A stretch of DNA of 51,586 bases from a virus (lineage: Duplodnaviria; Caudoviricetes): positions 1 through 51,586 of IMG/VR virus record IMGVR_UViG_3300032242_001840; one strand, 5' to 3'. Below are positions 9,075 through 49,250 of the stretch, piece by piece. Both the position numbers and the translations under genes were made by a program. Each line of letters opens with the position of its first letter. Positions within the stretch are counted from its first letter, which is position 1. The notes beneath the pieces were generated by a model. It did no database searches, was not told the DNA's origin, and saw only the letters and a program-made list of their open reading frames with translations.

Positions 9075-9298
9075 TTATTCGCCTCCTTGCGAATCTGTTT
9101 TGCACGGGCATCGGCCAGGAATTTCGTATACGCAGCGGACTTTTTGCTTGTGACTTTGCCCCAATGGCTGGGGGGCTGTTCTGGAACCCGCGAGATGAGC
9201 GGGGTGGAGTCGTCACCGTAGGACAACGGAGTCAGAATGTCGGATTCGTCATTCTGGAGGGTGGACAAGGTATTGCATCCAATCGTAAATCTCATCAA
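9071..9298 (-). CDS. Small hypothetical protein (start uncertain)
   Basis: Fills gap; stop overlaps next start. Confidence 0.45.
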   Translation of the reverse strand: MMRFTIGCNTLSTLQNDESDILTPLSYGDDSTPLISRVPEQPPSHWGKVTSKKSAAYTKFLADARAKQIRKEANK

Positions 9299-9443
9299 AG
9301 GCCATACGGCCGGCGATCTTGGCTACATCAGTCTGCATTTGCTTCGGCAGAATCCAAAGCTCCTGCTCAAGCACTTTCTCGCCGGATGTGAGGACAAGGG
9401 TAGCCTGCGTTTTCGTGATAGTCAGCGTGACTTCCGCAAGCAT
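9249..9443 (-). CDS. Hypothetical protein
   Basis: GGAGG RBS. Confidence 0.6.
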   Translation of the reverse strand: MLAEVTLTITKTQATLVLTSGEKVLEQELWILPKQMQTDVAKIAGRMAFDEIYDWMQYLVHPPE

Positions 9444-9462
9444 GCATATTGTCCTCCAGTAG

Positions 9463-9726
9463 TCATTCTACCCGATGGGCAGCGTCGATGCGGCGGTCAC
9501 GCTCCACCTGCGTCCACTGCGACTTTATCGCCGTTTTCGCCAGCATGATCTGCTCCGGCGTCGGAATGTAAACCTCGACCTGCCGGGGGTAGGGGAGCTT
9601 CATCTGCGCCGCCGCGGCGGCAAGCTGCGCTTCCGAAAACCCCATCTCGTCGCAGATTTCGTCTTCAAGCGAGTCGCTCTTCCACAGTCGCTGTAGCTTC
9701 TGCTTCTGGCGGGTCGATAAGTCCAT
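9463..9726 (-). CDS. GcrA-like HTH protein with PT..I...W motif
   Basis: LQRLWKSDSLEDEICDEMGFS; IPTPEQIMLAKTAIKSQW. Confidence 0.65.
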   Translation of the reverse strand: MDLSTRQKQKLQRLWKSDSLEDEICDEMGFSEAQLAAAAAQMKLPYPRQVEVYIPTPEQIMLAKTAIKSQWTQVERDRRIDAAHRVE

Positions 9727-10616
9727 CAACCCTCCCTAATCAGTGCCGCATAACGGCTACCAGGGTTCAGATACATCCGCACCCACGGGTATCCGCCGTC
9801 TGTCTTGTCGGCGATCGACTTGTGCAGGCAGACATGCTCGCAGTCCTCGCCGGAATACTTGCCCAACAACCAGTAGCGGGTCTTGTAGACGGCCAGCCCG
9901 CCAAAACAAGAGTTCATCGGCTGCACGGGTGCGGCGACCGGCGGCAAGAACATCGAGAACCACCCCAGGCCGATTTCCTCGCGACGATCCTCCCACCAGC
10001 AGACAGGCCGGGCGGCCCACGAATCGTAGTGAGCGATCTGCGCCCTTTCTGGCTTGCCAGCCTCCTGCGTCAGGTAGAGCGAGTAGCTCCCCATGCCGTA
10101 GGCCGAAGGGGTCGCGTCCAACTGAGCGATCGAGTTGAAAATGCCATCGACGCTGAAGCCCCCCTCTGGGTCAACGTCCAGCACGATCACATAGTCGGCA
10201 TGTGGGGCGTTTTCCCTGACCCATTCCATGCACTTCTGCCGGTACTCTGCGAGCGCCTCAGTTCGCGGGCCGGCGAACTCCCCCGGCAGGTGCGGCCGGT
10301 TGAGCGTGGCATGCTCAACCGTCATGTAGCCGTTGGCCGCGGCGTGAGCGTCAAGCATCTCGGCGGTGCCGTCGTCCGAATCGTTCTCAAAAACGTACCA
10401 GTGCGGCTTCGCCGGCCCGAGGCAAGACAGCGACCGGAACTGCTCCACAAGCGCCAGCGTGTTGGGCAACATGCGGGCGGCGTTCCTGGCGATCGACACG
10501 ATGACGATGCTGCTGCACAAAGCAGTGTTCATCCCCTCGGCCACCGCATCGCGGTAGTCCTCAATGTACTTGTCGTCGATATTCCAGAAGTCTTCGGGGC
10601 AGATTGTCGGCTTCAT
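9726..10616 (-). CDS. GT-A glycosyltransferase (CAP59/GT69-like)
   Basis: FENDSDDGT, LAEYR, VLDVD, YDSWA, SCFGGLAVYK, DCEH. Confidence 0.8.
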   Translation of the reverse strand: MKPTICPEDFWNIDDKYIEDYRDAVAEGMNTALCSSIVIVSIARNAARMLPNTLALVEQFRSLSCLGPAKPHWYVFENDSDDGTAEMLDAHAAANGYMTVEHATLNRPHLPGEFAGPRTEALAEYRQKCMEWVRENAPHADYVIVLDVDPEGGFSVDGIFNSIAQLDATPSAYGMGSYSLYLTQEAGKPERAQIAHYDSWAARPVCWWEDRREEIGLGWFSMFLPPVAAPVQPMNSCFGGLAVYKTRYWLLGKYSGEDCEHVCLHKSIADKTDGGYPWVRMYLNPGSRYAALIREG

Positions 10617-11898: not shown

Positions 11899-12185
11899 CA
11901 CAACCTCCCCAGGAACTGGCGGGCATCCTCGGCCGACCGCACAACGGAGCAGTGGCAGCCGGCCGCCATAAGCTGCGCCATGACACGCACCTGCACCGGC
12001 GTCGGCTTGCCCCCCGGCCGCTTCACCTCCATCCAGACGGCGCGGCCGTCTTTGATGCAGATAACGTCGGGCAGCCCGGCCAGCGAATACGCCGAGCCAT
12101 GGTTTTTTGCGCACCACCACCCCAGTTTGCGGGCGACATCCATGACGCTCTTGACGATCACACGCTCAAGAGGGGCGCTTTGCAT
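11898..12185 (-). CDS. VRR-NUC domain nuclease
   Basis: GLPDVI...MEVKRPGGKPTPVQ. Confidence 0.88.
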   Translation of the reverse strand: MQSAPLERVIVKSVMDVARKLGWWCAKNHGSAYSLAGLPDVICIKDGRAVWMEVKRPGGKPTPVQVRVMAQLMAAGCHCSVVRSAEDARQFLGRL

Positions 12186-12191
12186 GCTTGT

Positions 12192-14382: not shown

Positions 14383-14418
14383 TTTCCTCGTTGCTACCTA
14401 TTTCCGACGCCGGAAAAG

Positions 14419-14493
14419 GGCTGGGTGCCGGAATCGAACCAACGTCTGCGGGGTTATCTTTCCCGCCGCTCTGCCAACTGAGCTAACCCAGCC
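14419..14493 (-). tRNA. tRNA-like element with aberrant 9-nt anticodon loop
   Basis: Acceptor (G)GCTGGGT/ACCCAGC(C), D arm GCTC-AGTTGGCA-GAGC, stem GCGGG/CCCGC with loop AAAGATAAC, T arm GTTGG-TTCGATT-CCGGC; no encoded CCA. Confidence 0.8.
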
Positions 14494-16662: not shown

Positions 16663-17312
16663 TTGCCACCTCCCCACTGCGTTGCCATGGCTGCTGCCCA
16701 GCCTGCGTAGGTTTCGCTTCTGATCTTCCACCTGTCCTCTGAGGGAGGTTCTTTGTTCTGGCCTCCGGCCGTCTGATTGCCCCACCGAAACGCATAGCTC
16801 CTGCCATCAGCAGACCCCTCCAGCCGGGGGGGGGCTAGCGATGTTGGCAAAAGCTTGGGCAGGTTTTTAAGCCAGAGGCATGTCCTCTTGCTGGCGTCCT
16901 CGCCGTATTCGTATGGCTGAATGAACTGGTCAGGCTCGCGCCATCGGCTCGACAGAACGCCGATCGGGTTCTCAATGGCAATCCGTTCAATCGGGGCAGT
17001 CGCCAGCGACATGACGAACTCAACGGCCTTCTCACGAGCGTCCCGCCGGGCTTGGCCGATCAGCGTCCCTGGCTTCATCTTCTTGGTCTGCACGTCACGG
17101 TAGGCCCACTCTGCTGCGATCGTGAGGAACGTGCATGGCGGGTGGGCGATCATCAAGTCCCACCCGTCGCCAATGATGTCCATCACGTCGCCCTGGTAGT
17201 GAGGGCCGATACTGTCGGTGGGTAGCAAATCGCAGCTAAGAGCGTCGTGGCCGGCGGCCAAAAACGCATCCCTGACACGGCCGCTGTATTCGCAGGCAAC
17301 AAGGACTTTCAT
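16641..17312 (-). CDS. Phage DNA cytosine methyltransferase-like protein
   Basis: VLVACEYSG, SCD, HPPC, ENP motifs. Confidence 0.8.
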   Translation of the reverse strand: MKVLVACEYSGRVRDAFLAAGHDALSCDLLPTDSIGPHYQGDVMDIIGDGWDLMIAHPPCTFLTIAAEWAYRDVQTKKMKPGTLIGQARRDAREKAVEFVMSLATAPIERIAIENPIGVLSSRWREPDQFIQPYEYGEDASKRTCLWLKNLPKLLPTSLAPPRLEGSADGRSYAFRWGNQTAGGQNKEPPSEDRWKIRSETYAGWAAAMATQWGGGKCLQLNT

Positions 17313-17548
17313 TTCCCCTCCTCCGGCAGCGGCGGCAGCGGCATCCAGTGGGTGACATCTTTCAGGTCAACAGAGCCGGCCCAGCCCACGTTGTGTCTTT
17401 TTTCTTTGAAAACCATCCACCAAGGCTCGTCGCAATCGTCCTCAGACCCAGGGAGCCGAATCTCACCTGCTGAAACTGAACCGCCAGTCGCCACAAGCAC
17501 TGTTTCGTATTCGGTCGGCAGCCGTTCGCTTACGGGAATCCAGTTCAT
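17309..17548 (-). CDS. DUF551-family protein
   Basis: WIPVSERLP...VTHWMPLP. Confidence 0.9.
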   Translation of the reverse strand: MNWIPVSERLPTEYETVLVATGGSVSAGEIRLPGSEDDCDEPWWMVFKEKRHNVGWAGSVDLKDVTHWMPLPPLPEEGK

Positions 17549-17958
17549 TTCGTCTTCTCCGTAAAAAGGATGCGAATCGTCCACTCTGGATAATGCCAGC
17601 TTGTCTTCGACACATCGACATTGCAGTCCAACTCGGCACGAAGGTTTGCGACAGCAGCAGGAAGTCTGGCGTCATTGAACTCAAGGTACGGCTCAAAAAC
17701 GTAAGCCAGCTTGCCGTCAATATGCGTCTTTCCTGCGTGGTCAAGCATGGCGTAAAAGCACGACGGCCCGTACTTCTTCTCCATCGACAAAAGAAACTCC
17801 AGCATCGGGTAAAACGCCCTAGCGTTACCCCCTAGCCGTTTGGTCGCAGCAGCAACCTTTTTGCTCAACCATTGAGGCGGATTTCCATATACCACCTTTG
17901 ACACACCCGACTTGACTCTCTTTTCAGCCAGCCCTGGATTCCTTGCTGTCATTGTCAA
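17545..17958 (-). CDS. Hypothetical protein
   Basis: AAGGAG RBS; FEPY...SWHYP. Confidence 0.7.
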   Translation of the reverse strand: MTMTARNPGLAEKRVKSGVSKVVYGNPPQWLSKKVAAATKRLGGNARAFYPMLEFLLSMEKKYGPSCFYAMLDHAGKTHIDGKLAYVFEPYLEFNDARLPAAVANLRAELDCNVDVSKTSWHYPEWTIRILFTEKTK

Positions 17959-17964
17959 TTCTCC

Positions 17965-18264
17965 TTAAGCCATTGCCTTCGCAACCCTGCCCAAAACCCT
18001 GGCAGCACCCTGACGACGGCGCTGCGTTGTCTTAAGCGTCCAACCCGCTTGAAACTGCTGGCATCGCACTCTAATCATTTCCTCAGACGGATCGCCAAGC
18101 TGCCTCTCTTGGGTGAAAGCCTGCTGTTGCCTATTCCAGACCTTCAAGCCGTTGTGGCATGCCTTGCAGTGAGTCATGTAGCGATAAAACTTCGTTGCAG
18201 GCTTGCATTCTCCGCAGTCGCAACACGTCATCTTCTCGGGCGTTGTGTACTCAATTCCCCTCAT
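17965..18264 (-). CDS. Zn-finger protein with DPS..I..R...W motif
   Basis: CCDCGECK...CKAC; DPSEEMIRVRCQQFQAGW. Confidence 0.65.
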   Translation of the reverse strand: MRGIEYTTPEKMTCCDCGECKPATKFYRYMTHCKACHNGLKVWNRQQQAFTQERQLGDPSEEMIRVRCQQFQAGWTLKTTQRRRQGAARVLGRVAKAMA

Positions 18265-18469
18265 GTGTCCCTTCCCACTCACCACACCAGTTGCCCGCCG
18301 CCACCACCGGAAAGCGACACGCCTGCCCGCCGTCATCGTCGGTCATGTAGGTCGGCGGGAAGCGGCGGCACTGCACCACCTTCTCGCCGTTCTTACTGAC
18401 CTCGCCGGCCACAACACCAAAGCCGCAGTTAAGGCACGTCGGGGTGCCGTCTTCGGTGGGAGAGATCAT
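18251..18469 (-). CDS. Small Cys-rich protein
   Basis: CLNC...CRRFPP...WCGEW. Confidence 0.75.
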   Translation of the reverse strand: MISPTEDGTPTCLNCGFGVVAGEVSKNGEKVVQCRRFPPTYMTDDDGGQACRFPVVAAGNWCGEWEGTHEGN

Positions 18470-18687
18470 CGGTTCACCACCATCCTCTGAAACTCGTCAA
18501 TTTCCTCTGACATCAACTGCATTCTCTCTGCCACCCGCCCTTGGATCGAATTACGCTTCACAAGTTCTGACGCAAGCCGAGCGTTCTCTGCCGCAAGACT
18601 GTCACGCTCTTCCTTTAGCTGCGCAACCTCCTGTTGCAACTCAGCCTGCCGGTCAAACATCCAAGCGAACATGCTCATCGGTTGCAC
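18466..18687 (-). CDS. Coiled-coil hypothetical protein
   Basis: Coupled ORF. Confidence 0.65.
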   Translation of the reverse strand: MQPMSMFAWMFDRQAELQQEVAQLKEERDSLAAENARLASELVKRNSIQGRVAERMQLMSEEIDEFQRMVVNR

Positions 18688-18980
18688 TCCTGCACAAAGG
18701 CACGGCAGACCTCGGTCTGATCTAACTCGGTCAAGTAATAGCCGCCATCGACGTTGCCGTACTTCTTGACGACCCAGCCGGCGTCAGCGGCGGCCTTGGC
18801 AAACTGTTGCTCAGTAGAAAAGTCGATGCCCAGCACCCCGAGGTAGCTGGAGAGAAAAGCCACTGAGACATATCCGGTCGGTTCGTGTTTCACGAACTTC
18901 GACAGGAATTCGGCAATCGGGCAGGTGGGCGTCAGGTCGGTGACGTTCCAATCCATGGACGGCAGCCAGGCTTGTGTCAT
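18675..18980 (-). CDS. Hypothetical protein
   Basis: Coupled ORF. Confidence 0.6.
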   Translation of the reverse strand: MTQAWLPSMDWNVTDLTPTCPIAEFLSKFVKHEPTGYVSVAFLSSYLGVLGIDFSTEQQFAKAAADAGWVVKKYGNVDGGYYLTELDQTEVCRAFVQECNR

Positions 18981-19186
18981 TTCACGCCCCCCCGTTGCAG
19001 CAGTGGGCGAAGCTCCCGACTGGTCGCAACAAGCTCAGAGCGAGCAATCCTGACCTCGGCGGGGGCGGCGATCGCGAGGGTGACCTTCTTGCCCGATACT
19101 CGAGCAACCATGACCTCAATCGGTTCTTGGCCCGGCGTTTTCAAGACCAGCTTTTCGCCGATCAATCGCGAGATAGACAATGGCAT
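18977..19186 (-). CDS. csrA: CsrA/RsmA-like RNA-binding protein
   Basis: LSISRLIGEKLVL...IEVMV..VSG..VTLAIAAPAEVRIARSE matches the CsrA fold pattern, including the conserved RNA-binding Arg. Confidence 0.85.
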   Translation of the reverse strand: MPLSISRLIGEKLVLKTPGQEPIEVMVARVSGKKVTLAIAAPAEVRIARSELVATSRELRPLLQRGGVK

Positions 19187-19215
19187 GGGAGTCCTTTCCA
19201 GTTGTGTCGTCCGGT

Positions 19216-19244
19216 AGTCTACGAACCTTGACCAGAAGCGTCAA
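19216..19244 (-). promoter_or_regulatory. Sigma70-type promoter of csrA operon; GTAGACTAC overlaps -10
   Basis: TTGACG-17 bp-TAGACT. Confidence 0.75.
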
Positions 19245-19683
19245 GCCACGCCTGACATGCTTTTTTGACCGCCAGATTCGGGTGCCTGCTTGCAGCAAAC
19301 CGCAGATACTCCATCCCGCCTGACTCCTCGGAAACTTCGTCCAAAGTCAATCCTTTGTAGACCCCCTCCCTCAACTGGAACGACTTCGGTTTCTGCTTGA
19401 TGTACCCGACGATGGCGTCCACCCATTCCGCCCGCAGGCAGAAATTACACTGCACCAGCCACTGCCGGCGATCCTCATGCAGGATGTCGTGGCTCATCGC
19501 TTGACAGCCTTCGCAGAGGAATGTGTCCTCAATCCTCCCGATGGCCCGAATCGCCTTCACGGGCTTTGCAGGAGGCTGCGGGGGCGGCTCTGCCTCCACA
19601 GTCACCTGCGTCGGCCGCTTGGCGGCGGTCTTCTTCTTGACTTGGTCGTCCTGGGGGGCGACGGGAAACAGAGTCTCGCTCAC
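19219..19683 (-). CDS. Zn-ribbon protein
   Basis: CEGC/CNFC; GVYKGLTLDEV. Confidence 0.7.
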   Translation of the reverse strand: MSETLFPVAPQDDQVKKKTAAKRPTQVTVEAEPPPQPPAKPVKAIRAIGRIEDTFLCEGCQAMSHDILHEDRRQWLVQCNFCLRAEWVDAIVGYIKQKPKSFQLREGVYKGLTLDEVSEESGGMEYLRFAASRHPNLAVKKACQAWLDASGQGS

Positions 19684-21326: not shown

Positions 21327-21510
21327 TGTGACACTTTCCTTTGGTTTAAAATCCGTCACGCCCGCCGTCACGAAAAAACTCTCCATAAACTGTTGATCGG
21401 TAGCCACTTACGAAAACCTGTGACACTTTTCCGCTTGTGACGCCCTCCAAGTGAAAACAAAAAAGTGTTTTCACTTTGACCCCCTATAGTAGAAGAAGGG
21501 TGGAACAGCG
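21327..21510. other. Candidate replication origin
   Basis: AT-rich intergenic region with repeated TGTGAC/GTCAC and an inverted repeat, immediately after the primase gene. Confidence 0.45.
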
Positions 21511-23268
21511 TTACGCCGTCGCCTCCACGGGGTGGGCGATGGTTTCCAAGGCGTCAATGTGACGCTGTTCCCAAACGATGTAGCGGCGTTGAGTGCCGTT
21601 TTCGCTCCTAGCCCGCTTCGCATAAAACTCGGAGTCTCCGGTGGCAATCAGAATCCTCCGCTTCAGAGACACCATCTCGCCGTCCAGGACATTGACCTTC
21701 CGACTCTTGCGGATGTCCTCAAAGACCCTGTTCCAAGAGAAGTACAAGTCAAAACGCCCGTCCTTCTGCCTGACCCATGAAGGCTTGCCGGAGGCGTGAG
21801 GCTTGTCGTCGTCGGGGTTTGTGCCGTCAGGGAAGCCAGTGTTGGTCAGGGCGTCCAGCAGCCAGCCGGCCAACAGAACGTACCGCTGCTGCTCCGGCGG
21901 CGGAATCTCTTCGGTTCGCTGATCCATCAGCTTGACCTTCAGCCCTCTAACTGGCGGGCATTTCTTCGTGGAAGCCTCCACAATGTCTTCGCCGTCGCTG
22001 TCAATCTTCTTCTTCTTGACCTTCTTCGGACGCATCGAATAGCCGTTCCAAATTTTGGCCCACTCCTTTGGGTTTGGATCGGTCACGTCGATGGTTGCCG
22101 TGGCCTCAAGAATCTTGCGGGCCACTGTCACGGGCTGAGTCCAATCAGAAGAAGAGAGGCTGACAAACGTGTAGATTAGGTCTTCTTCGTCTTCGATAGG
22201 AAGCGGCTTCCTGTCTAGCCCCAGCTTGAGGTTCGTCGGCACCGCCAGTCGATACTCGCACGGGTCTGACATCACGACCGCCAGCTTCCACTTGCCCGGC
22301 CACCACTCCCCGTCGCGGAACTCCAAGCCATTGAGGGCATGGGGGTTCTCCTTCATCTTCGTGTCAACGATTTCGTTGGCCTTCTCGTCTGTCGAAGCCA
22401 CGTCATAGACACCGGCTGCTCGAGCCTTCATGCCCCAGCGAAGCTGCCCTTGCCAGATGCTCTTGAGTTCTGCATCCGGCAGCGGCGGGCGGCAGATTGT
22501 TTGGTTGAGAGCGTGGAGAATGGTCATCACCACCTGCTGCTCTGATGGGTCGTGAGGATCGCGCATCCGCATGATCTCGCTGCTGATGAGCCTCACCATC
22601 CCAGTGTGCCGTTCAGTGATCTCAAGGCCACTCTGCACGATCGACATGGCCGGGACGTTCCTGCGGATGGAAAGCTCGTTGTCGCCTCCACCGCCCTCGG
22701 CCTCAATCAGCGCCGCCATGAATGGCTCAGGCAGACTCGCAAGCTCCACCTCATCCGGCGACAGCCCAGGCAGCCACTTGTAGACCGTGCCGCTGGAGTG
22801 CCGGCTGGGGGGCAGCAGGCTTTGCGCCCCGCGTTTGTCGCCGCCAATCCGCACCTCCAAGCCGCCCAGCTTGGCAACGGCCTTGCGGGGGAGGCGGCTG
22901 TCGAACTTCCACAGCCGGTGCTGGCCGCGGGATGATTCGTAGGTCGGGGTGGCGATCTTCGTCAGCCCGTATTTCTCGGCGACCGCCTTGGCGTCGGCGT
23001 TGTCCCATTCGGTATCGACAACACCCGACTTCGCACCGAACACCAGCCCAATATTTGGCTCGCTACCATTGAGGAACCAAGAGGCGATTTCGTCCTCGTT
23101 GGTTGTGCCGCGCTCCTGCCAGTTTCGATCCAGCGGGTGCTTGCCAGGCGTCGAGCATTCCGCCCCCAAGTAGCAGGCGCAGGTGCCGTCAGCGCGGATG
23201 CCGGAAACGCGAATGATGTTCCAGCCGATGGCGGCATACTTGGCCGCCGCGTCAAAAATGAGGCTCAT
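21511..23268 (-). CDS. Bifunctional primase/polymerase (Prim-Pol) protein
   Basis: C..PGKHP, NIG, VVDTE, RGQHR, LPPSRHSSG.Y.W, PriCT-like CRPPL. Confidence 0.85.
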   Translation of the reverse strand: MSLIFDAAAKYAAIGWNIIRVSGIRADGTCACYLGAECSTPGKHPLDRNWQERGTTNEDEIASWFLNGSEPNIGLVFGAKSGVVDTEWDNADAKAVAEKYGLTKIATPTYESSRGQHRLWKFDSRLPRKAVAKLGGLEVRIGGDKRGAQSLLPPSRHSSGTVYKWLPGLSPDEVELASLPEPFMAALIEAEGGGGDNELSIRRNVPAMSIVQSGLEITERHTGMVRLISSEIMRMRDPHDPSEQQVVMTILHALNQTICRPPLPDAELKSIWQGQLRWGMKARAAGVYDVASTDEKANEIVDTKMKENPHALNGLEFRDGEWWPGKWKLAVVMSDPCEYRLAVPTNLKLGLDRKPLPIEDEEDLIYTFVSLSSSDWTQPVTVARKILEATATIDVTDPNPKEWAKIWNGYSMRPKKVKKKKIDSDGEDIVEASTKKCPPVRGLKVKLMDQRTEEIPPPEQQRYVLLAGWLLDALTNTGFPDGTNPDDDKPHASGKPSWVRQKDGRFDLYFSWNRVFEDIRKSRKVNVLDGEMVSLKRRILIATGDSEFYAKRARSENGTQRRYIVWEQRHIDALETIAHPVEATA

Positions 23269-23289
23269 ACAGCCCTCCATGGTGTGCAG

Positions 23290-23330
23290 AAAAATCCCTC
23301 CCGGCCGGCATTGCTGCCAGCCGGGAGGGG
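23290..23330 (-). terminator. Intrinsic terminator-like hairpin upstream of primase
   Basis: CCCTCCCGGC...GCCGGGAGGG stem followed by ATTTTT. Confidence 0.5.
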
Positions 23331-23479
23331 AATGAATTCGCCAGCGAGGGCCAGGGGAATGAGAGAACCTGACTGATCTCGCCAACTTCCTGCCGTTACA
23401 TCGCCACAGCAGGCTGGGCTGCGGGCCAGCGGGGCTATGAACCGCCGGTTTACGGTCGCCCGCCCGACACGAATGACAA

Positions 23480-24235: not shown

Positions 24236-24260
24236 GCGTCTATCTCCTGAGAAAAAGAAA

Positions 24261-24704: not shown

Positions 24705-26055
24705 AATCGATCACTTCCTTTCTTTCTGACAAGGCATCGTAAATCCGTCCATCCATCGTTTTGTGGCTGCGTAGTGTAGCAACCAGCGAGTAAAAATGCG
24801 TGGTCTTTTCCTGGCCGGGGCGGTGGAGGCGAGCGACCGCCTGAAGATATTCGGAGAGGGAATAGCCCAGAGAAAAGAAGCAGCCGTAGGCCGCTCTGGT
24901 GAGGTCGATGCCGATTCCGCCCGACTGAATCTGGGCGATCAGCACCGATGTCTTGCCTAGCTGCCAGTCGGCAAGATCGTTCATTTTACCACTGAGTTCG
25001 CTGCAGGATCGGCCCATCCGCTCGCAAACGGCACGACACTGAGCTATGTCGCTGCGGAACCGTGCAAAGATCACCACCGGCTCCAGTTGGTCAAGGCAAT
25101 CCAGCATGTCGGCCAGCGCCGCCGCCTTCGGCGACACGTCATCGATCGCCGTGGACATCTCCGTTTCGTCGTAGCGGGCGTAGCCGTTGCATACCTCAAG
25201 TTGCCGCAGCACCTTCGTCAACACATTGCTTGGGGTGATCGTGCCGTCATCGCAGCCGGCAGCAAAGTCGTCGTCAAGTGAGTCGTAAAGCTTGGCCTGC
25301 TTCGGCGTCATGTCGCAGGGTATTTCTTGGTGCAGGATCGGCGGCAGATCAAGGACATCTTCGGAGCGACGATGAAACGTCGTCTCCGCGACCTTGGCCG
25401 AAAACTCCGGCTCGTTGATCATCCGCTTCGCATCGAACGCCCCCGGCACCCCCCGCATCGGCAGGAAGTAGCGGGTGCGGAAGCTCGTCACATACTTGCC
25501 CCAGGTGGTGCAGTCGGGCGACTCGACCGCCCGCCAGGTGCCAAAGGCGTCCATCGGGGACTGAGAAAGGAGGGTGCCGGAGAGAGCCAAGCGTTTGGCG
25601 TTGGGGTTCTTTTTGCCGATCTCGGCGGCCCATTTGGACGCCTTCCCGCCGGGGGACTTGAGCCGGTGGACTTCGTCCCACACCAGACAGTCCCACTTGA
25701 CCTTATCCAGCGATTTCATCCGCCACAGGGATTCGTAGTTGCCGCAGATGAGTATCGGGCCAGACAGACGCTCCATCGTCTCAAACACCAAGGTGTCCTT
25801 GTCGGCAGAGCTTCCGCCGATCAGCGGCAAGACCCGAAGCTCCGGCCACCAGAGGGCCACTTGCTTCGGCCAATTGGGGACAACCGCTTTCGGGCATCCC
25901 AGCAAGAACCGGCCAGCGCGACCACAGAATTCTTCCTTGAGTGCCTCCAATGCGATGCGGCTTTTGCCGCATCCCATGCCGAGATGCAGAATGCAGTTCT
26001 GCCGCCCCCGACACCACTCAATGGCTTCGCGCTGATGCTTCCATGCGTCTGACAT
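24598..26055 (-). CDS. SNF2-family helicase
   Basis: MGCGKS, DEVH, LSGT, GIDL, RLHRPGQ. Confidence 0.92.
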   Translation of the reverse strand: MSDAWKHQREAIEWCRGRQNCILHLGMGCGKSRIALEALKEEFCGRAGRFLLGCPKAVVPNWPKQVALWWPELRVLPLIGGSSADKDTLVFETMERLSGPILICGNYESLWRMKSLDKVKWDCLVWDEVHRLKSPGGKASKWAAEIGKKNPNAKRLALSGTLLSQSPMDAFGTWRAVESPDCTTWGKYVTSFRTRYFLPMRGVPGAFDAKRMINEPEFSAKVAETTFHRRSEDVLDLPPILHQEIPCDMTPKQAKLYDSLDDDFAAGCDDGTITPSNVLTKVLRQLEVCNGYARYDETEMSTAIDDVSPKAAALADMLDCLDQLEPVVIFARFRSDIAQCRAVCERMGRSCSELSGKMNDLADWQLGKTSVLIAQIQSGGIGIDLTRAAYGCFFSLGYSLSEYLQAVARLHRPGQEKTTHFYSLVATLRSHKTMDGRIYDALSERKEVIDYVLDYYSHRERIDGGAAGKGGADGRGNQAGQRCSR

Positions 26056-26079
26056 CCATGCCTCCGGTTTCGTGGAGGC

Positions 26080-26744: not shown

Positions 26745-26949
26745 AATCGCACCTCCCTCTTTCACCCCTAATGATTGGGGTGCGTTGCAGGCAAATCAAT
26801 GCTGAACGGGCGATCAGCGTCCTTCCCTCATTTTTGGGGTGAGTTTTTTTGCGACAGAACTTGACACAAGGCAGTGGAGGCGGCAACACTCTACTCCGTT
26901 GGGGACGACCGGCGTCCCCGCCAGTTTCTCTTGAGCGGAGTTTCCCGGC

Positions 26950-28363: not shown

Positions 28364-28707
28364 CAGAGTGACGCCGCCTCTATGAATGCGGCGTCAATGG
28401 CAGCGGCGTCCATGCCAAACGCTTGAGCCATCGACACAAGGGTGCTGCTGCTTCGGTGAACCGTGCCGCTGTACTCCCACTCAATGCGGGTGGATTCGCG
28501 TGTTTCTTCTGGCAACGCTGCAATGGCCGCGTCAACCTGTTCAAGCGTGATCCCGTGAGCCACCAACCACTTTCTGATCTGTACCGCCGTGATCGTTTCT
28601 GGCACGGCAAAGGGCATTGATTGATTCACGCCAACAATATCACCCGCATCGTTGTACACGTTCCAAGTCTTTAACCCATCCACAAGACCAACGTACTCTG
28701 TTCGCAT
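28363..28707 (-). CDS. Tail fibre assembly-like protein
   Basis: VPETITAVQIR...IEWEY...IDAAFIEA; follows fibre genes. Confidence 0.65.
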   Translation of the reverse strand: MRTEYVGLVDGLKTWNVYNDAGDIVGVNQSMPFAVPETITAVQIRKWLVAHGITLEQVDAAIAALPEETRESTRIEWEYSGTVHRSSSTLVSMAQAFGMDAAAIDAAFIEAASL

Positions 28708-33163: not shown

Positions 33164-33249
33164 TTCCCCTCATTCATAATGGCGTAGCAGAACAAACCAA
33201 ACGGGACGATAGTCCCGCCGACGACGAATCCGGCGATGAAATAAATCAT
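33157..33249 (-). CDS. Small membrane peptide
   Basis: GGAGG RBS; 30 aa hydrophobic. Confidence 0.5.
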   Translation of the reverse strand: MIYFIAGFVVGGTIVPFGLFCYAIMNEGKW

Positions 33250-33282
33250 GGTGGCCTCCATGCCTTATCTCATTTTACACCC

Positions 33283-35461: not shown

Positions 35462-35697
35462 ACGACAACTCTATCGGGGCCGATGTTCGCGACGTTCTCT
35501 TCGGAGAGCGTCTTTGAGATAGCAGCCGCTGCCGGCTTGAGATGCTGGCCGAAAGTGCCAGCCCTCCACGCATCAAGCAGGTCGGCGAGCAGTTCTGCGT
35601 GTTCTGGCTTGACCTTTTCCCACCAGGGCTGGTTTCTTCTCCCCTGCGGGAAGTTTGCCAGCACCTTCTCGAGGATCGCGGTTTTCTTCGCAGCCAT
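35440..35697 (-). CDS. Small putative HTH protein
   Basis: Precedes phosphoesterase; MAAKKT. Confidence 0.65.
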   Translation of the reverse strand: MAAKKTAILEKVLANFPQGRRNQPWWEKVKPEHAELLADLLDAWRAGTFGQHLKPAAAAISKTLSEENVANIGPDRVVVWLKRAW

Positions 35698-35794
35698 CCT
35701 TGCCCTCCAGCCAGACCATGCCGTCATCGTCGGGAATGCCGCCGCCCGCAGGCGTGTCGTCGTCGGGATCAAGATCGCCGAACGAACGCATAGT

Positions 35795-44210: not shown

Positions 44211-44851
44211 TCACCCTGTGAGCTTTCTTAGCTCGGCAATGATCTGTTCCTGCGTCTGCTCCGGCCGGTGGCTGGAGGGAATGAATGCTGACTCGTCGGG
44301 GATGTCGTTCTTCTTGTAGTTGCCGCTGGCACACATCACGATGCGAGCCAGGCGGGCCGTCTGCTGCCAAGGATCGGGGAGCGGCCACCTTTGGTCGAAG
44401 GCATACCACTCCGCGATCTCTTGGCTGTCGATTTCTTCCAGCAACTGCTTGACCGTCTTGCCGAGGGCCAGAGCTAGGCGGAAATAGAACCGTCGCTCGG
44501 GGCGCTCGGCGAATCTTTTCCCATGGCGTCAACGTCCTCCGGCCGGAAGTAGTTGAGCGCCCACGCAGCATCAAACAGCCGGTTCAGCACGACGCTGTTC
44601 TTGTCGCCGAGGGCGGCGATGTCAGCGTCGGAGGTGAACAGCCGCTTGCCAATGTCGTCGCACAGCGTCAGGGCTAGGAACCTTGACCGAATCGGCTTGT
44701 CCTTCTCCTTCTGGAGGCTCTCTTCAAACACGTCTCGGTCGGTGCCGCGGAGGACGCGGACGTAAACGTCGCCGTTCCACTCGGGGACGTTGACAAGCTC
44801 CAGCTTGGCGTCATTGGCGGCGAGAATGGCTTTTGCATCAAGAACTGGCAT
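44211..44851 (-). CDS. Tail assembly chaperone GT (-1 frameshift product)
   Basis: Slippery G GGA AAA at 44516-44522 leads into RFYFRLALALGKTVKQLL. Confidence 0.8.
44474..44851 (-). CDS. Tail assembly chaperone G
   Basis: VPEWNGDVYVR...LCD..G.RLF. Confidence 0.88.
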   Translation of the reverse strand: MPVLDAKAILAANDAKLELVNVPEWNGDVYVRVLRGTDRDVFEESLQKEKDKPIRSRFLALTLCDDIGKRLFTSDADIAALGDKNSVVLNRLFDAAWALNYFRPEDVDAMGKDSPSAPSDGSISA

Positions 44852-44878
44852 TTGGCACCTGCGTAGGGACTGTAGAAA

Positions 44879-45328
44879 TCAAGACAAAAGGTATGGGTTG
44901 TAGTCCGACACTCGGAACTTCATAGACCCTCGCACAAGCTCTGCCGTGCGCACATCAAGAGAAACAGACTCAAGGACGACATGCCTAGCAACCGTGTAAT
45001 TGGCATAGCATGTGAACCTCAGAACGCCGTAACTTCCAGTCAGCGTCTGCATGTCAATGCCGGTAGCGTCGGCAATAAAATCAACGCTTACTGAGCCACC
45101 TGAATGCGCTCCAGTAGGCACGATTACCGTTGCGTCAGATGTGTCAGTGATTGAGGTCATGTCAGTAACCTCCGCGACCGGAGATTCAACTGACATCCCT
45201 GTAATTTTGGCGTAGATAGTGAAGTCAACTGGGCGATCTTGAAAATTCTGGTTGACAGTTCGAGGCGCAACCGTCCCGAAATGCCCGTAATAGACAAACG
45301 TCGCACCCTGTGGACTAAATCCCGCCAT
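44879..45328 (-). CDS. Tail-tube-like protein 2
   Basis: Similar to upstream gene (QG.TF, VSVD, LVRGS..FRV). Confidence 0.65.
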   Translation of the reverse strand: MAGFSPQGATFVYYGHFGTVAPRTVNQNFQDRPVDFTIYAKITGMSVESPVAEVTDMTSITDTSDATVIVPTGAHSGGSVSVDFIADATGIDMQTLTGSYGVLRFTCYANYTVARHVVLESVSLDVRTAELVRGSMKFRVSDYNPYLLS

Positions 45329-45337
45329 GCATCACCT

Positions 45338-45679
45338 TTACGCAACGCGGAAGGTGAGGCTGCCCTTGACGAGGTCTCCGATCGATCCACCGACGCTGCT
45401 GGAAACGATCGTGGCGTTGCCGCTGAAGGACAGCGGGCCGGTGATGGCAAGCGCGCCCGATGTACCGGCAGTCTGAAGGGACTGAGTGATGACATCGACC
45501 GATACTTCCCGCATCGTCGCGAATCCACCAACGTACTCACGCCGGCCGTTGGGGGCGATCCCCAGATGGCTGCCGTCGATGAGGTCTTGGCTGTCGCTGA
45601 CATTGACGCTGGTGATGATGAGGGTGGTTGCGGTCGTCGGGAACGTGAATGTCAGTCCCTGTGCGGAAATGCCTGCCAT
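45338..45679 (-). CDS. Major tail tube protein
   Basis: Position after tail terminator; strong RBS; ID.SHLG. Confidence 0.7.
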   Translation of the reverse strand: MAGISAQGLTFTFPTTATTLIITSVNVSDSQDLIDGSHLGIAPNGRREYVGGFATMREVSVDVITQSLQTAGTSGALAITGPLSFSGNATIVSSSVGGSIGDLVKGSLTFRVA

Positions 45680-45705
45680 CGTTGCGCCTCCTTGCGCTGG
45701 GTGTG

Positions 45706-46134
45706 TTACCCGGTAGCCTCTTGCCACCGAATCTGGTAAAGCTGCCTTACTTCATATGCTGGTGGAAGCTGCGATCCGTACATGGTGGGGTCAAGGAAAT
45801 CGTCCACCTCGGACACCAGCCTCATATCTTGTATTGTAACCCCTGCCAGCGTCCCAGTGTGACCATCCAGAGCGAGGCGAACTTCGTCGCCAAGTTCCCT
45901 CACTGTGTCATATGTCAACGCCCAAGCAGCGATCTGGAGGCTCACCAGCGGCATAAAGTTTGGCCCAGCCAGATTTGATTCTCGGCTGATATTCGCCCGC
46001 TTGTAGACGATGTACGGCAAGGCGGCATCTGTCCGCGGAACGGCGATCGGGTACACCTGAAAACCGACGATCCTTGCCACCGCAGGAGTGGTGACAAGGC
46101 GCATGTAGACGTGTTTTTCGGGGGTGAGGATCAT
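45706..46134 (-). CDS. Tail terminator (DUF3168-like)
   Basis: VYP...PYIVY.R...VR.ALDG. Confidence 0.85.
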   Translation of the reverse strand: MILTPEKHVYMRLVTTPAVARIVGFQVYPIAVPRTDAALPYIVYKRANISRESNLAGPNFMPLVSLQIAAWALTYDTVRELGDEVRLALDGHTGTLAGVTIQDMRLVSEVDDFLDPTMYGSQLPPAYEVRQLYQIRWQEATG

Positions 46135-46898
46135 TGGTATTTCCTGACTGCCGCCGAAAGCATGCTCTCAAGCGTCCGCAGCACGTCCGCTTGGCATTCG
46201 GTGATTGTGTCTCGCATCAAATGCATGGCTGGCATCGGGGCGATAGTTTCGCCCGGCTTCAAGGTGATCGGATGCTGCTTTCTGCCGTCGCCGTTAGGGC
46301 CTGTGCCTGCAAAGTCTCTTGAGTACGAATTACCAGGCCCACGCTCGCGAAGGCTCCCCATGAGGAAGTAGTAGCCGGCCCCGGCATTGGCGAACTGCTT
46401 GTCGTTCATGCTCTTGCCGGGATGGAGTCGCATTTTTCGGTTGACCAACTGATGCACATTGACGTAGGTGCGACGATTCTCGGTTCCCGGCCGGCGTGGC
46501 CCACTGCCGAACTCGACCAGCCAACTGTGATTACCCGATTCTTGGCCTGGCTGCGAGCCGACGTTGCCCGTCTGTCTCGGGCCTGTTACATCGACAACGG
46601 CCCTGCTTCCGTTGGCGTTTTTGTAATTGCGGGGCATGGTTGTCACCGACTTGGCAAGATTGCCAGTGGCGACATGCTGTCGGGCTTTGTTCTTGTACGT
46701 TTCTTCAACAATTTTTGAGGCCGTGCGGACGGCATGCTTCAGAATCGCGTCCGAAAGAGCTTCTCCGAGCATCTTGTCAAGCTGTTCGTAGAGGTTGCGA
46801 ACGCCCGAAGTTCTGATGGTCACGAACTGGTTGAGTTGATGCAGCGCCGTCGTGCCGTCGATATCCCGCGGCGTGGCGTTGTGCCTGTAAAGCGCCAT
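46131..46898 (-). CDS. HK97 gp10-like neck/tail completion protein
   Basis: TGNLAKS, HSWLVEFGS, MPA motifs. Confidence 0.75.
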   Translation of the reverse strand: MALYRHNATPRDIDGTTALHQLNQFVTIRTSGVRNLYEQLDKMLGEALSDAILKHAVRTASKIVEETYKNKARQHVATGNLAKSVTTMPRNYKNANGSRAVVDVTGPRQTGNVGSQPGQESGNHSWLVEFGSGPRRPGTENRRTYVNVHQLVNRKMRLHPGKSMNDKQFANAGAGYYFLMGSLRERGPGNSYSRDFAGTGPNGDGRKQHPITLKPGETIAPMPAMHLMRDTITECQADVLRTLESMLSAAVRKYQ

Positions 46899-47215
46899 CA
46901 CTCCACCTCCCGTGCCAGGATTTCGTGCATCGTCCGCACATCCCGCTCGACAACGCTGGCAATCTCCAGCGTCTTGCCACGCCATAGCAAGCGGTGCTGG
47001 TGGGTAATGCCGGAGAAGAAGCGAATCCGAATTTTGTAGGTGACCAGCGCGTTGGCCTGCATGCCCATCATCACCTCGCGGCTGCTCAGACCGTTGACGC
47101 TCGCCCAGACCTCGCCGGCCGTCGCCCAGCCGATCGTTGACTCCCCAAGCGCATTGCGAACCGTCGTCGGTGCTTGGACGGTCACCCGCTCGCGAAGTGG
47201 GCCGGCGTTCTGCAT
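46898..47215 (-). CDS. Head closure protein
   Basis: AG.LRERVTVQ...VWA.V...IRIR. Confidence 0.9.
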   Translation of the reverse strand: MQNAGPLRERVTVQAPTTVRNALGESTIGWATAGEVWASVNGLSSREVMMGMQANALVTYKIRIRFFSGITHQHRLLWRGKTLEIASVVERDVRTMHEILAREVE

Positions 47216-47216
47216 T

Positions 47217-47543
47217 TCACCCCACCCACACGGCTGTGTAGCTTGAGGCCACGGCGGGGGCGGTGACCGTGATCGTCGCCGTCACCGGCAGGACGGCCAG
47301 CCGGCCTGCGGCGAAATCCATGCCTGCGACTCGCAGGACGCCGTTTCCCGTGTTCTTGAGGGCCAGGGTGGAGATTGACGCAGGAGCGGCCAATGTCACC
47401 GCAGAAGTCCCCACAGTGCCGCTGGTGGAGGAGCAATAGAGCGGCGAGAGCCTCAGATGCTCCGACTGCACTCCCACGACCAGCGTCGTGCCGTCGTTGT
47501 CCTGGTAAACCACATCGGTGTCGATTCTGGCTTGAATGCTCAT
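47217..47543 (-). CDS. Minor structural protein
   Basis: Beta-rich; within neck module. Confidence 0.6.
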   Translation of the reverse strand: MSIQARIDTDVVYQDNDGTTLVVGVQSEHLRLSPLYCSSTSGTVGTSAVTLAAPASISTLALKNTGNGVLRVAGMDFAAGRLAVLPVTATITVTAPAVASSYTAVWVG

Positions 47544-48223
47544 CGGTAGGCTCCCCAGTCAGCGGCGGCCCGCAGGGTGTCAAATGTCATCGGGATCGCA
47601 CCGTAGTTGCCGACGCCGACCGACTCACGATTGACGTACCAGTGGCCGACCAAGAGCAGAATTTCATTCCGGTGCAGCCGGGGGACGCTGTCGCCGCTGG
47701 CCCCGTATCCGGCCTGCCAACGGACGATGACGCTGTTCTCGTCCCCTCGCACCGGCGGCCAGTAGTTGGCGTAGAGCGGCAGAATGCGGCCGGGGACGGT
47801 GTAGCGATCGACCTGAAACTGGCTGGCGGTGCTGGTGATCGACTGCATGTTGCCTTCTTGGTCGCGGTAGGTGACCGTGATGGCGGCGTCCAGCATTGGC
47901 GGGCGGGGCAGAACAAGCTCCCACAACGGGAAACAGTAGTAGCGAGTCTCCCAGGTAGACGTAATCAGCGTCACGTCGTGGATTTCTTCCACATACTCGC
48001 GGGCGGTGCTGATCAGACCCTGGATATAGGCGTCGTCGGCCTCTGTATCAACGCGGCAGTGGGCCTTCGCCTCAAGCAGACTCACAGGCTCGACGGTTGG
48101 CTGCACAACTCGGGCAAGACTTCGGTACGGAGTGATCGTCGGCGAGGAGTTTCTCGGCAAACCGTACAAGACCGTCGTCATTACTGACGGGCTTTGCGGG
48201 GCAGAGTAGTCGATGGAACTCAT
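47540..48223 (-). CDS. Head-tail connector (phiE125 gp8-like)
   Basis: EPVSLLEAKAHCRVD...AGYG...LLVGHWY.NRE. Confidence 0.92.
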   Translation of the reverse strand: MSSIDYSAPQSPSVMTTVLYGLPRNSSPTITPYRSLARVVQPTVEPVSLLEAKAHCRVDTEADDAYIQGLISTAREYVEEIHDVTLITSTWETRYYCFPLWELVLPRPPMLDAAITVTYRDQEGNMQSITSTASQFQVDRYTVPGRILPLYANYWPPVRGDENSVIVRWQAGYGASGDSVPRLHRNEILLLVGHWYVNRESVGVGNYGAIPMTFDTLRAAADWGAYR

Positions 48224-48447
48224 TTCCTTCTCCGCACTTTGGTGTCTGGCATGTCTGCTCGTTCAAGTCCACGCTCCTCGGCGGCCTCGGCTGTTTCGAC
48301 CCGCTCTTCGGGGAACTCTTCAATGAACCCCTGCTTGATCAGTTCGATCGCCATGCCGCGATCCCAGTCAAAAACGCTGCCCACGGGGTAGGCACCGAAT
48401 CCGACCAGAACACGAATGCGAATGGCACCTTCTCGGACTGCACTCAT
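48220..48447 (-). CDS. Small head-region protein
   Basis: A.ELIKQG.IE; basic tail. Confidence 0.7.
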   Translation of the reverse strand: MSAVREGAIRIRVLVGFGAYPVGSVFDWDRGMAIELIKQGFIEEFPEERVETAEAAEERGLERADMPDTKVRRRK

Positions 48448-49172
48448 CGGACGATCCCCCATGCTTCCTTCGGGCCTGCGCCGCCCTTCCAATACTCGGT
48501 TGTGTGCTGCTGCACCTTGCCCGTGCCTGTTTCGCGGCTGGGCCAGGTAATCATCGGCTCGATGTGGCCGATCGACACCGCGGTAGCGATGCCCAAGGTG
48601 TTGCCGGCGGCCTTCCACTGATTCCAGAAGAAGATGTCTTCGTCAACGTGATCGGGAGCCTCCCAGGTGCCGTCCGCACCGGCGGCGGCGAGGAACCATG
48701 GCTTTGGCAGCTTCTTGAGTGCCGACACCCGAATCAGCGTCAGTCCGAAGTGGGCGGTGTCCACCAACTGCACCGACTTCTTGAACCAGGCGTCATCGAC
48801 ATCCTTCTTCTCCTCGGGGCCGACGCCCGGCAGGGAGAGCATAATCGTGTTCGCCTCTCGCTTGGTCTGGAGCGGGGCGAGGGCATCGACGCCAGAGTGG
48901 CAGAATAAGGCCACCAAAGCCTCGAATGTCTTGGTGGAGAAGACGCTGTCGTAATCAATGGTCAGGATTACGTCATTGTCGTCCATGACAAACTGCATGG
49001 CTCTCTCAAGGCACTGCCCCCAGAACGCGCCGGTGACGCGATACGGCGATATGCCGTGTGGGGCAAGTGCCTGAGAAACACAGAACATGTTGTCGGAGAA
49101 GGCGAGTCGCGGGGTGGACATCACCGCCGCGATCTTCAAGTCCGCTTCAATGTTCCCGGTACGAATCAGCAT
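48444..49172 (-). CDS. GT-A (GT2-like) glycosyltransferase within head module
   Basis: TIDYD (DxD), GLTLI, PWF, DEDIFF, IGH. Confidence 0.75.
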   Translation of the reverse strand: MLIRTGNIEADLKIAAVMSTPRLAFSDNMFCVSQALAPHGISPYRVTGAFWGQCLERAMQFVMDDNDVILTIDYDSVFSTKTFEALVALFCHSGVDALAPLQTKREANTIMLSLPGVGPEEKKDVDDAWFKKSVQLVDTAHFGLTLIRVSALKKLPKPWFLAAAGADGTWEAPDHVDEDIFFWNQWKAAGNTLGIATAVSIGHIEPMITWPSRETGTGKVQQHTTEYWKGGAGPKEAWGIVR

Positions 49173-49250
49173 CGAATCGCTCCTTGTAGGGAGCGGGCGC
49201 GCGTCCCTGCGCCTATTCGGCCATCCTTGGCCGTCCCGCAATATTGGGAC

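Follow-up and report, generated by a model that had tools for sequence, protein, structure and literature searches.

Does a phage that encodes a CsrA-like protein also carry, on its own mRNAs, the sites to which such a protein would bind? The question is raised by IMG/VR virus record IMGVR_UViG_3300032242_001840 (Duplodnaviria; Caudoviricetes), an entire phage record of 51,586 nt that is referred to below as the window. A sequence-only reading of this DNA had described a CsrA-like gene and nine CANGGANG boxes, mostly in hairpin loops at translation starts, and had proposed a post-transcriptional regulon gating phage development. CsrA is a dimer that prefers GGA in the loops of short hairpins (PMC3856055), and the consensus for CsrA-type sites was given as "CANGGAYG positioned in a hexaloop" (bioRxiv 10.1101/2020.08.24.265819). 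The gene and the nine boxes were all located. The phage has a CsrA-family gene, and hairpins of the CsrA type are significantly enriched, strand-specific, concentrated at ribosome binding sites (RBSs) and kept at orthologous sites: in 49/49 loci before a tail-tube-like gene, in 79/79 leaders of a glycosyltransferase-like gene and in 7/7 phage csrA genes. The candidate regulon is small, about 5 of 77 called genes; the conserved hairpin set stands and the genome-wide gate on development does not. The reading that we favour, with moderate confidence, is a small CsrA-type translational regulon of a few phage mRNAs, csrA included. The sequence itself shows the gene, the hairpins and their enrichment, strand and position bias and conservation; that a protein binds them, which protein this would be and what would follow for translation are inferred.

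The csrA-like gene and the hairpin at its own start

18977..19186, minus strand: csrA-like gene, 69 aa, matching Pfam PF02599 and phrog_9500
19188..19199, minus strand: csrA RBS hairpin ggaAAGGACtcc with a 3-bp stem, 1 nt upstream of ATG 19186; putative site of autoregulation

The PF02599 (CsrA) match of the gene product covers residues 3-54 (E 2.8e-10; 40.4 bits, cut-off 27) and its PHROG match, phrog_9500, is annotated "CsrA-like regulator". PF02599 was found in all five near-complete relatives searched (G001-G005, 55-74 kb), with 52-60 bits, and also on a related contig within one metagenome-assembled genome (MAG). In the alignment of seven phage CsrAs the residues L3, R7, G10, A41, P42, R49 and E51 are invariant, and the equivalents of E. 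coli CsrA R6, G9, A36, P37, R44 and E46 are unchanged. The window protein aligns to the solved E. coli and Yersinia CsrA chains (1y00, 2bti) over residues 3-53, with query R49 on R44, R7 on R6, V45/I47 on V40/V42 and E51 on E46. R44 is the most important RNA-binding residue of CsrA, Arg7 and Ile47 being less so (PMC3856055). The equivalent of that Arg7 is Leu in the window, Ser in two close relatives and Arg in the remaining four proteins; the Ile47 position is occupied by Leu or Ile.

The hairpin at 19188-19199 is missing from the box list of the sequence-only reading. In all seven phage csrA genes examined, the Shine-Dalgarno sequence (SD) lies within an AAGGAN hexaloop 1-4 nt before the start codon, closed by a GGA/UCC stem in five genes and by a GAGG/CCUC stem in two. 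CsrA is described as repressing its own translation (PMC3856055), and the hairpin at csrA's own SD is the strongest piece of evidence for the regulon. A CACA(A/C)-rich stretch (cacaac, cacaaa, cacatc) is found directly 5' of this hairpin in all seven phages; in the window it spans 19200-19215 of the minus strand.

Enrichment of stemmed ANGGAN hexaloops

About 77 genes were called in the window by a self-trained codon model with starts guided by the SD; the majority are on the minus strand, from ~6.7 kb to the window end. The count against shuffled controls that had been proposed as a check gives a divided answer. The plain CANGGANG motif is at chance window-wide: its 43 matches compare with 36.2 +/- 6.1 in 100 shuffles, 16 of which reach 43, and 34 of the 43 are on the minus strand, which codes most genes and is purine-rich. 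The stemmed ANGGAN hexaloop is enriched. With stem length taken as the contiguous Watson-Crick pairs around the hexaloop, 11 of the 183 minus-strand ANGGAN sites have at least 3 bp and eight have at least 4 bp; the plus strand has 3/103 and 0/103, and the background for all hexaloops of the window is 1.7% and 0.50%, respectively. None of 500 dinucleotide-preserving shuffles of the minus strand equalled the observed hairpin number (means 4.0 and 1.0, maxima 10 and 6, at the two thresholds). The control loops A.GAG., A.AGG., A.GGC., A.GGG., A.GGT., A.CCA. and T.CCT. gave 0-2 hairpins each.

The position of the hairpins was assessed in RBS zones, defined as -30 to +8 relative to the start. There CANGGANG is top-ranked among xyNGGANz contexts, with 7/82 in the window (2.7 expected) and 39/533 (21.2 expected) in six genomes, namely the window and its five near-complete relatives; these genomes are mutually related and the pooled counts are therefore not independent. 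A null model in which the 5' flank of one site is paired with the 3' flank of another predicts 0.8 stems of at least 3 bp and 0.3 of at least 4 bp at the 30 sites in the RBS zones of the window, where 5 and 3 are found. The six genomes have 33/226 (5.3 expected) and 17/226 (1.5 expected). Interiors of coding sequences in the six genomes have stems of at least 4 bp at 24/1120 sites versus 6.3 expected, some of these interior calls being mis-called starts (csrA in G001 and G002, for instance). The five relatives carry, on the main coding strand of each, stems of at least 4 bp at 9/206, 8/255, 4/246, 6/250 and 8/232 sites, with backgrounds of 0.57-0.68%. Since stems were counted only at given ANGGAN sites, a bias in the choice of starts does not drive these statistics.

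These numbers bear on one explanation of the boxes, that CANGGANG overlaps by chance with GGAGG SDs and with ATG-GAN starts on a purine-rich coding strand, and that there is nothing more to them. The window-wide count of the plain motif agrees with this explanation. The shuffles and the cross-pairing null, both in the window and in the six genomes, speak against it, as does the retention of hairpins at orthologous sites while adjacent bases vary. Chance overlap is contradicted for the conserved hairpins and holds only for four weak boxes discussed below; as an account of the whole it is very improbable.

When loop lengths of 4-9 were combined with every GGA offset (33 combinations), a single geometry departed from expectation, the hexaloop with GGA at offset 2, with 13 hairpins in the window versus 4.3 expected. 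Across the six genomes this geometry occurs at 86/6649 sites on the main coding strand versus 40.5 expected, and 37 times on the opposite strand versus 31.3 expected. Base 1 of the loop is mostly A (8/183 sites stemmed, versus 5/692 for C, G or T). The favoured hairpin type has GGA at hexaloop positions 3-5 and usually a C-G closing pair. Four phages were used for comparison:

Mycobacteriophage L5, first 50 kb: stems of at least 4 bp at 2/290 ANGGAN sites, 1.9 expected
Streptomyces phage phiC31: stems of at least 4 bp at 0/319 ANGGAN sites, 1.6 expected
Pseudomonas phage F116, csrA-positive, first 50 of 65 kb: stems of at least 4 bp at 2/250 sites, 1.6 expected
Pseudomonas phage D3112: stems of at least 4 bp at 5/197 sites, every one on the coding strand; 1.4 expected with both strands counted

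The hairpin excess is no general trait of G+C-rich phages, L5 and phiC31 showing none. F116 shows no excess and D3112 shows some; csrA carriage and cis hairpins are thus not tightly linked across phages. Note that D3112 is not among the csrA-positive matches listed (40 of the 77 phage records that match a relative's CsrA in the present phage collection), and that csrA was not searched for in D3112. The D3112 hairpins span 17825-25800 of the plus strand, one being directly before the annotated protease/scaffold start at 19918 and one in the orf37 leader; they may be a sign of host RsmA sites.

An alternative that accepts the enrichment is that the hairpins present a strong SD (AAGGAGG) in single-stranded form within a G+C-rich mRNA, no regulator being engaged, and that CsrA acts elsewhere, for example on host mRNAs. 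Among the RBS hairpins most loops read AAGGAG or ATGGAG; their GGAG and the closing G together form a canonical SD, located 10-13 nt upstream of the start codon. The lack of enrichment in csrA-positive F116 fits this alternative, and so does the published view of phage csrA as a moron gene with no assigned role (PMC9144972). It does not account for the enrichment of the offset-2 GGA hexaloop only, since other loop sizes would expose an SD equally and are not enriched, nor for the preference for A at loop base 1, nor for the absence of any effect in L5 and phiC31. We regard SD presentation as unlikely.

The RBS hairpin of the tail-tube-like gene

45338..45679, minus strand: tail-tube-like gene, 113 aa, the next gene after the tail terminator
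45684..45697, minus strand: RBS hairpin gcgcAAGGAGgcgc, SD in the loop, 4 nt before ATG 45679, present in the minimum-free-energy fold

The 113-aa protein has no Pfam or PHROG match. An Atlas lead connects it to a cluster in which 42% of the members have PF06199 (Phage_tail_2), and the "tail tube" name of the sequence-only reading is kept here as a lead. The hairpin precedes the tail-tube-like ortholog in all 49 loci that hold its N-terminus, in the form gcgcAAGGAGgcgc in 46 and cgcAAGGAGgcg in three. The spacer from hairpin to ATG differs in sequence among the loci and is 2-7 nt long, and the N-terminus of the protein is variable too. A GCGC-ANGGAN-GCGC module is common to this RBS and to the leader of the glycosyltransferase-like gene described next; at the tail-tube-like gene it is not part of a junction.

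The structured leader of the glycosyltransferase-like gene

48444..49172, minus strand: GT-A-fold glycosyltransferase-like gene, 242 aa, head module
49170..49250, minus strand: structured leader, 78-nt spacer before ATG 49172
49239-49235 with 49197-49193, minus strand: helix P1 (GCGGG with CCCGC), enclosing H1 and H2
49250-49246 with 49237-49233, minus strand: P0, an alternative helix
49218..49233, minus strand: hairpin H1, cggccAAGGATggccg, 5 bp
49199..49212, minus strand: hairpin H2, gcgcAGGGACgcgc, 4 bp
49178..49195, minus strand: SD-sequestering hairpin CGCUCC/GGAGCG, 3' of P1 and before ATG 49172, in the minimum-free-energy fold

The gene lies between those coding a phrog_5707 protein and the head-tail adaptor. 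Its 242-aa product has no match in Pfam or PHROG. The AlphaFold2 model (pLDDT 68.8, pTM 0.73) has STIV A197 as best Foldseek match (E 1.6e-7), followed by B4GALNT1, COLGALT1 and GalNAc-T enzymes; Atlas leads point to PF00535, and D73 and D75 of a D-x-D motif are invariant. The name "glycosyltransferase" of the sequence-only reading is supported at fold level. The protein has 89 relatives in IMG/VR, of which 80 loci with 60-100% identity were kept. Leaders were compared at 79 loci (78 and the window), L004 and L063 being excluded as they have no upstream sequence.

The order of elements in the 79 loci is GCGGG-AC-GGCC-(loop)-GGCC-G-linker-GCGC-(loop)-GCGC-G-CCCGC-UCC...GGAGCG...start. In 77 of them the loop of H2 has the form A-N-G-G-A-N, with eight distinct hexaloops that differ only at the two N positions (U, A or G at position 2; any base at position 6). 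The H1 loop is ANGGAN in 7/79 loci and otherwise AYGAY-like. The two loci whose H2 loop is short of a G (ATGAG, ATGAT) both carry ANGGAN in H1, and every leader has at least one ANGGAN hexaloop. This swap of GGA from H2 to H1 suggests that one exposed ANGGAN loop is the selected feature. H2 is 33-34 nt upstream of the start and distinct from the SD, and loops such as ATGGAT, AAGGAT and AGGGAC preserve A-GGA but differ at the positions needed for an SD; both features argue against SD presentation at this site. The GGA-to-GGA spacings in the order H1-H2-SD are 20 nt and 23 nt. For CsrA dimers the reported distance between bridged sites is 10-63 nt, 18 nt being optimal (PMC3856055).

The sequence-only reading had also announced an SD-sequestering hairpin before this gene, and it is indeed found: CGCUCC at 49195-49190 pairs with GGAGCG at 49183-49178, with 92.7% of cells paired across 39 sequences. 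In the same 39 sequences the junction of P1, H1 and H2 is paired at 99.2%, and the alternative made of P0 and the SD stem at 93.9%. The minimum-free-energy fold of the leader has P0, H1, H2 and the closed SD stem. As read from the sequence, the CCCGC 3' arm of P1 shares three bases with the anti-SD CGCUCC, so that the two helices are in part mutually exclusive. The leader is more strongly conserved than the neighbouring proteins: over ~50 nt it has three G+C helices that do not change, while their loops do. A search of 49100-49320 against Rfam (E up to 10) returned nothing above 14.6 bits, and the leader is a candidate new structured RNA motif without Rfam match. A role as terminator or promoter was rejected, as no terminator-like or promoter-like site is found there; terminator-like sites (G+C stem followed by a T run), sought across 44800-49800, are absent both at the leader and at the tail-tube RBS.

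Could such a leader work without CsrA? It might be a self-contained riboregulator or the target of another factor, the invariant P1/H1/H2 junction competing with P0 and the anti-SD stem in response to a ligand, to temperature or to coupling with the upstream gene, or acting at the DNA level, and the ANGGAN loop being part of the RNA's own tertiary fold. In favour of this possibility, P1, H1 and H2 are near letter-invariant while the proteins fall to 60% identity, the overlap of P1 with the anti-SD makes partly exclusive helices, the minimum-free-energy fold combines P0 with the SD-sequestering stem, and the sequences of one clade show complementarity between the H2 loop region (CAUGGAU) and the start region (AUCCAUG). 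That complementarity is however lost where ATGGAG or ATGGAC loops occur with GATCCATG and where AAGGAT loops occur with GTG starts; such pairing over a distance, attractive in two clades and broken in others, was retained only as part of this alternative. No Rfam family matches, the tail-tube RBS has the GCGC-ANGGAN-GCGC module but not the junction, and the swap between H2 and H1 points to selection for one exposed ANGGAN loop. We regard a CsrA-independent riboregulator as rather improbable.

The nine boxes and other hairpins

The claim that the nine boxes lie mostly in hairpin loops was partly confirmed, as is evident from their stems:

9079-9092, minus strand: 6-bp stem; RBS hairpin attcgcAAGGAGgcgaat at 9077..9094, SD in the loop, before GTG 9074
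45684-45697, minus strand: 4-bp stem
49199-49212, minus strand: 4-bp stem
49219-49232, minus strand: 5-bp stem, hairpin 49218-49233
33253-33264, minus strand: 3-bp stem; RBS hairpin ggcATGGAGgcc with the SD for ATG 33249
26051-26062: 3-bp stem only when a G-U pair is allowed
23274-23281: 2-bp stem
26948-26957: 2-bp stem
35693-35704: 1-bp stem

Five boxes have at least 3 bp of Watson-Crick pairs, three have 2 bp or less and a fourth needs the G-U pair. Overall, five or six hairpins are genuine and three or four boxes are SD or start-codon artefacts. No convincing hairpin is found in the window at the primase, the SNF2 helicase, the gene before the integrase or the gene at 35697, which had all been counted as targets. 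The box at 23274 is the GGAGG SD itself, 5 nt upstream of ATG 23268. Those at 26053 and 35695 overlap the ATG, with a separate GGAGG upstream of each, and the plus-strand box at 26949 reads C-ATG-GAT-G, a start codon followed by an Asp codon. The "non-SD variants" had been advanced as an argument against mere SD overlap; this argument fails because those boxes are an SD or a start codon. SD or start codon explains all four weak boxes, which is the domain where chance overlap holds.

Two of the genuine sites precede genes of less certain identity:

8781-9074, minus strand: gene downstream of the 9077 hairpin
33157-33249, minus strand: small hydrophobic peptide gene, 30 aa, frame open from ATG 33261

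The gene at 8781-9074 has no family match in PHROGs or Pfam that would sustain the name "membrane/peptidase cassette". The "holin-region peptide" has a hydrophobic translation and likewise lacks a PHROG or Pfam family match. The 9077 hairpin is in the minimum-free-energy fold (z -1.9). At the hairpins at 9077, 19188, 33253 and 45684, the GGA is 10-13 nt before the start. A 6-bp hairpin of G002 (12120-12137) was considered as a covarying copy of the 9077 hairpin and rejected, tblastn placing it inside the ortholog and not at its start; the orthologs of G003-G005 have no hairpin at that position.

Further hairpins of the same type are found within genes:

21918..21931, minus strand: gctgATGGATcagc, in the primase-polymerase gene
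22059..22072, minus strand: cccaAAGGAGtggg, in the primase-polymerase gene
25766..25781, minus strand: agacgATGGAGcgtct, in the SNF2 helicase gene
48976..48991, minus strand: ttgtcATGGACgacaa, in the glycosyltransferase-like gene, codons F-V-M-D-D-N
28405..28416, minus strand: 3-bp hairpin ggcATGGACgcc, near the 3' end of gene 28363-28884 and 42 nt before the HNH gene start

The ATGGAN hairpins at 21918, 25766, 28405 and 48976 are codon-aligned, in the order codon, ATG, GAN and reverse-complement codon, the ATG being an in-frame Met followed by Asp or Glu. These palindromes around Met-Asp or Met-Glu count in favour of chance overlap, and the hairpin at 48976 may be a by-product of coding. In G003-G005, RBS hairpins that are lineage-specific and whose stems differ between orthologs were observed at the SNF2 helicase gene (gcaAAGGAGtgc versus gctAAGGAGagc), at the ortholog of 9463-9726 (ttc...gaa versus atc...gat) and at the tape-measure gene (attcAAGGATgaat versus attcAGGGATgaat).

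Proposed mechanism and its weighing

The phage CsrA is the most economical candidate for the acting protein, a host paralogue being possible. The window CsrA had no match in a tblastn search of the phage collection or in a peptide-pattern search of viral contigs; a wider protein search retrieved only two close relatives with 84-87% identity. One Chakrabartia MAG holds a relative of the phage, and its only PF02599 match is on a phage-like contig. Two Planctomycetaceae MAGs also hold relatives and have four csrA matches each. The CsrAs of the MAGs share 34-43% identity with the two relative-phage CsrAs that match them, and none matches the window CsrA. The host is not assignable from these MAGs because the binning of phage contigs is unreliable.

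In the CsrA-type regulon that we favour, a CsrA-family dimer would bind the ANGGAN loops of phage mRNAs, whose hexaloop form is the high-affinity geometry published for CsrA, RsmA and RsmE. At the sites with the SD in the loop (the tail-tube-like gene, csrA, gene 8781-9074 and the hydrophobic peptide gene), bound CsrA would block the 30S subunit and repress translation; on csrA's own SD hairpin the result would be negative autoregulation. At the glycosyltransferase-like leader the dimer would engage H2, with H1 or the SD as second site, and bridging to the SD would lead to repression. The opposite outcome is also conceivable there: P1 shares three bases with the anti-SD, and stabilization of the junction could thus loosen the SD stem, i.e. 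activate translation.

Several observations weigh against this regulon. The window CsrA is divergent, with 40 bits compared to 52-60 in the relatives and with Leu or Ser replacing Arg7, and it scores only 16-17 bits with the solved CsrA sequences. The 3-bp csrA hairpin is missing from the minimum-free-energy fold of the isolated leader. The tail-tube hairpin is invariant, and no compensatory change is found in the stems of the glycosyltransferase-like leader in 39 sequences; there is no covariation as these stems are invariant. The leader structure is compatible with the sequences, and the constraint could instead act at the sequence level. The distant orthologs of G002-G005 lack the 9077 hairpin, and four of the eight window hairpins with at least 4 bp are intragenic, at no start. 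F116 carries csrA and is without enrichment (2/250 sites versus 1.6 expected). Finally, gene starts were picked partly by SD strength, which favours GGA near starts.

The CsrA-type regulon can be extended, more tentatively, to a self-contained viral Csr circuit. The phage would supply both the regulator and its cis sites, possibly to CsrA-less hosts; CsrA would limit its own synthesis and would time or dose the tail-tube protein and the capsid-module glycosyltransferase, whose leader would be a three-way-junction, protein-responsive switch in which ANGGAN binding decides the closure of the anti-SD stem. This full circuit is possible, and doubtful as a whole.

Genome context and additional sequence features

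Structural genes of the window identified by PHROG and Pfam matches code for the major head protein, head-tail adaptor, head closure, neck, tail terminator, tail assembly chaperone and tail fibre-like proteins, to which is added a 1565-aa open reading frame of tape-measure size. The enzymes identified in the same way are a dNMP kinase, a dCMP deaminase, an exonuclease, an integrase, an SNF2 helicase and a second helicase, a primase-polymerase, PhoH and two methyltransferases. The sole tRNA is found among replication-region genes:

14418-14492, minus strand: tRNA-Ile (anticodon GAT)

An Rfam scan of the window at gathering scores returned nothing except one tRNA. Megablast of 17000-25000 against the phage collection found no close relative. 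The 12-mer GATCACGACCGC, complement included, occurs nine times in the window.

A repeat with the core CCCG-N5-GGAAAC(G) is present in the left arm (166-6995) in 18 copies with at most two mismatches, versus 0.19 expected, all on the plus strand. Seven copies, of the form GTGGAAAC, cluster in 166-725; the others, of the forms GAGGAAAC or AAGGAAAC, are SD-like and mostly 5-10 nt before plus-strand starts. The core recurs in the minority-strand arm of relatives, with 7, 6, 4 and 8 copies in G002-G005 and none in G001. Operator, iteron and leader box are among its conceivable roles. A role as CsrB/RsmZ-type decoy finds no support, the GGA not being in ANGGAN loops and the segment 150-375 folding no better than shuffles (z +0.38).

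Comparison with known systems

The glgC and hcnA leaders are examples of control by CsrA, RsmA or RsmE through GGA hairpins. The phage system resembles this bacterial control in its small PF02599 protein and in the GGA placed in a short-hairpin loop overlapping the SD, and, within what the sources cited above describe, in the CANGGAYG hexaloop, in two sites within bridging distance and in the autoregulation described for bacterial csrA and proposed here. It differs in that the regulator and its candidate targets are on one phage genome and these targets belong to virion modules; the window yielded no decoy RNA of the CsrB/RsmZ kind, the Arg7 equivalent is lacking and the phage system is known from its sequence.

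In 2020, csrA was catalogued in 30 of 2517 phage genomes, some of these phages infecting hosts without chromosomal csrA, and loss-of-function tests of phage and plasmid csrA were called for (Sobrero and Valverde, PMC7366521). In Burkholderia phage JC1 the gene was called a moron gene, possibly virion-associated (PMC9144972). The shared feature is a csrA on a phage genome; the available text of these two reports catalogues the genes and describes no cis targets on the phage's own mRNAs (PMC7366521, PMC9144972). A literature search in titles and abstracts, with subscription journals and supplements outside its reach, likewise retrieved no description of cis CsrA sites on phage mRNAs. To genes catalogued since 2020 with their role left open (PMC7366521), the present analysis adds conserved candidate RNA targets on the phage's own messages, and the question is reduced to bench scale, to three short RNAs and one 69-residue protein. 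The glycosyltransferase-like leader adds a well-populated structured-RNA candidate absent from Rfam, with 89 relatives in one collection. The findings suggest that some phages regulate virion-protein dosage post-transcriptionally via a borrowed bacterial regulator.

Phage-encoded translational repressors that act on phage mRNAs, their own among them, include T4 RegA and the MS2 coat protein with its operator hairpin. The proposed action of the phage CsrA is alike, with a phage protein on RNA sites that overlap RBSs, its own message included. RegA and the MS2 coat protein differ from the phage CsrA in belonging to unrelated families and in recognizing other RNA motifs, and the likeness is thus one of function.

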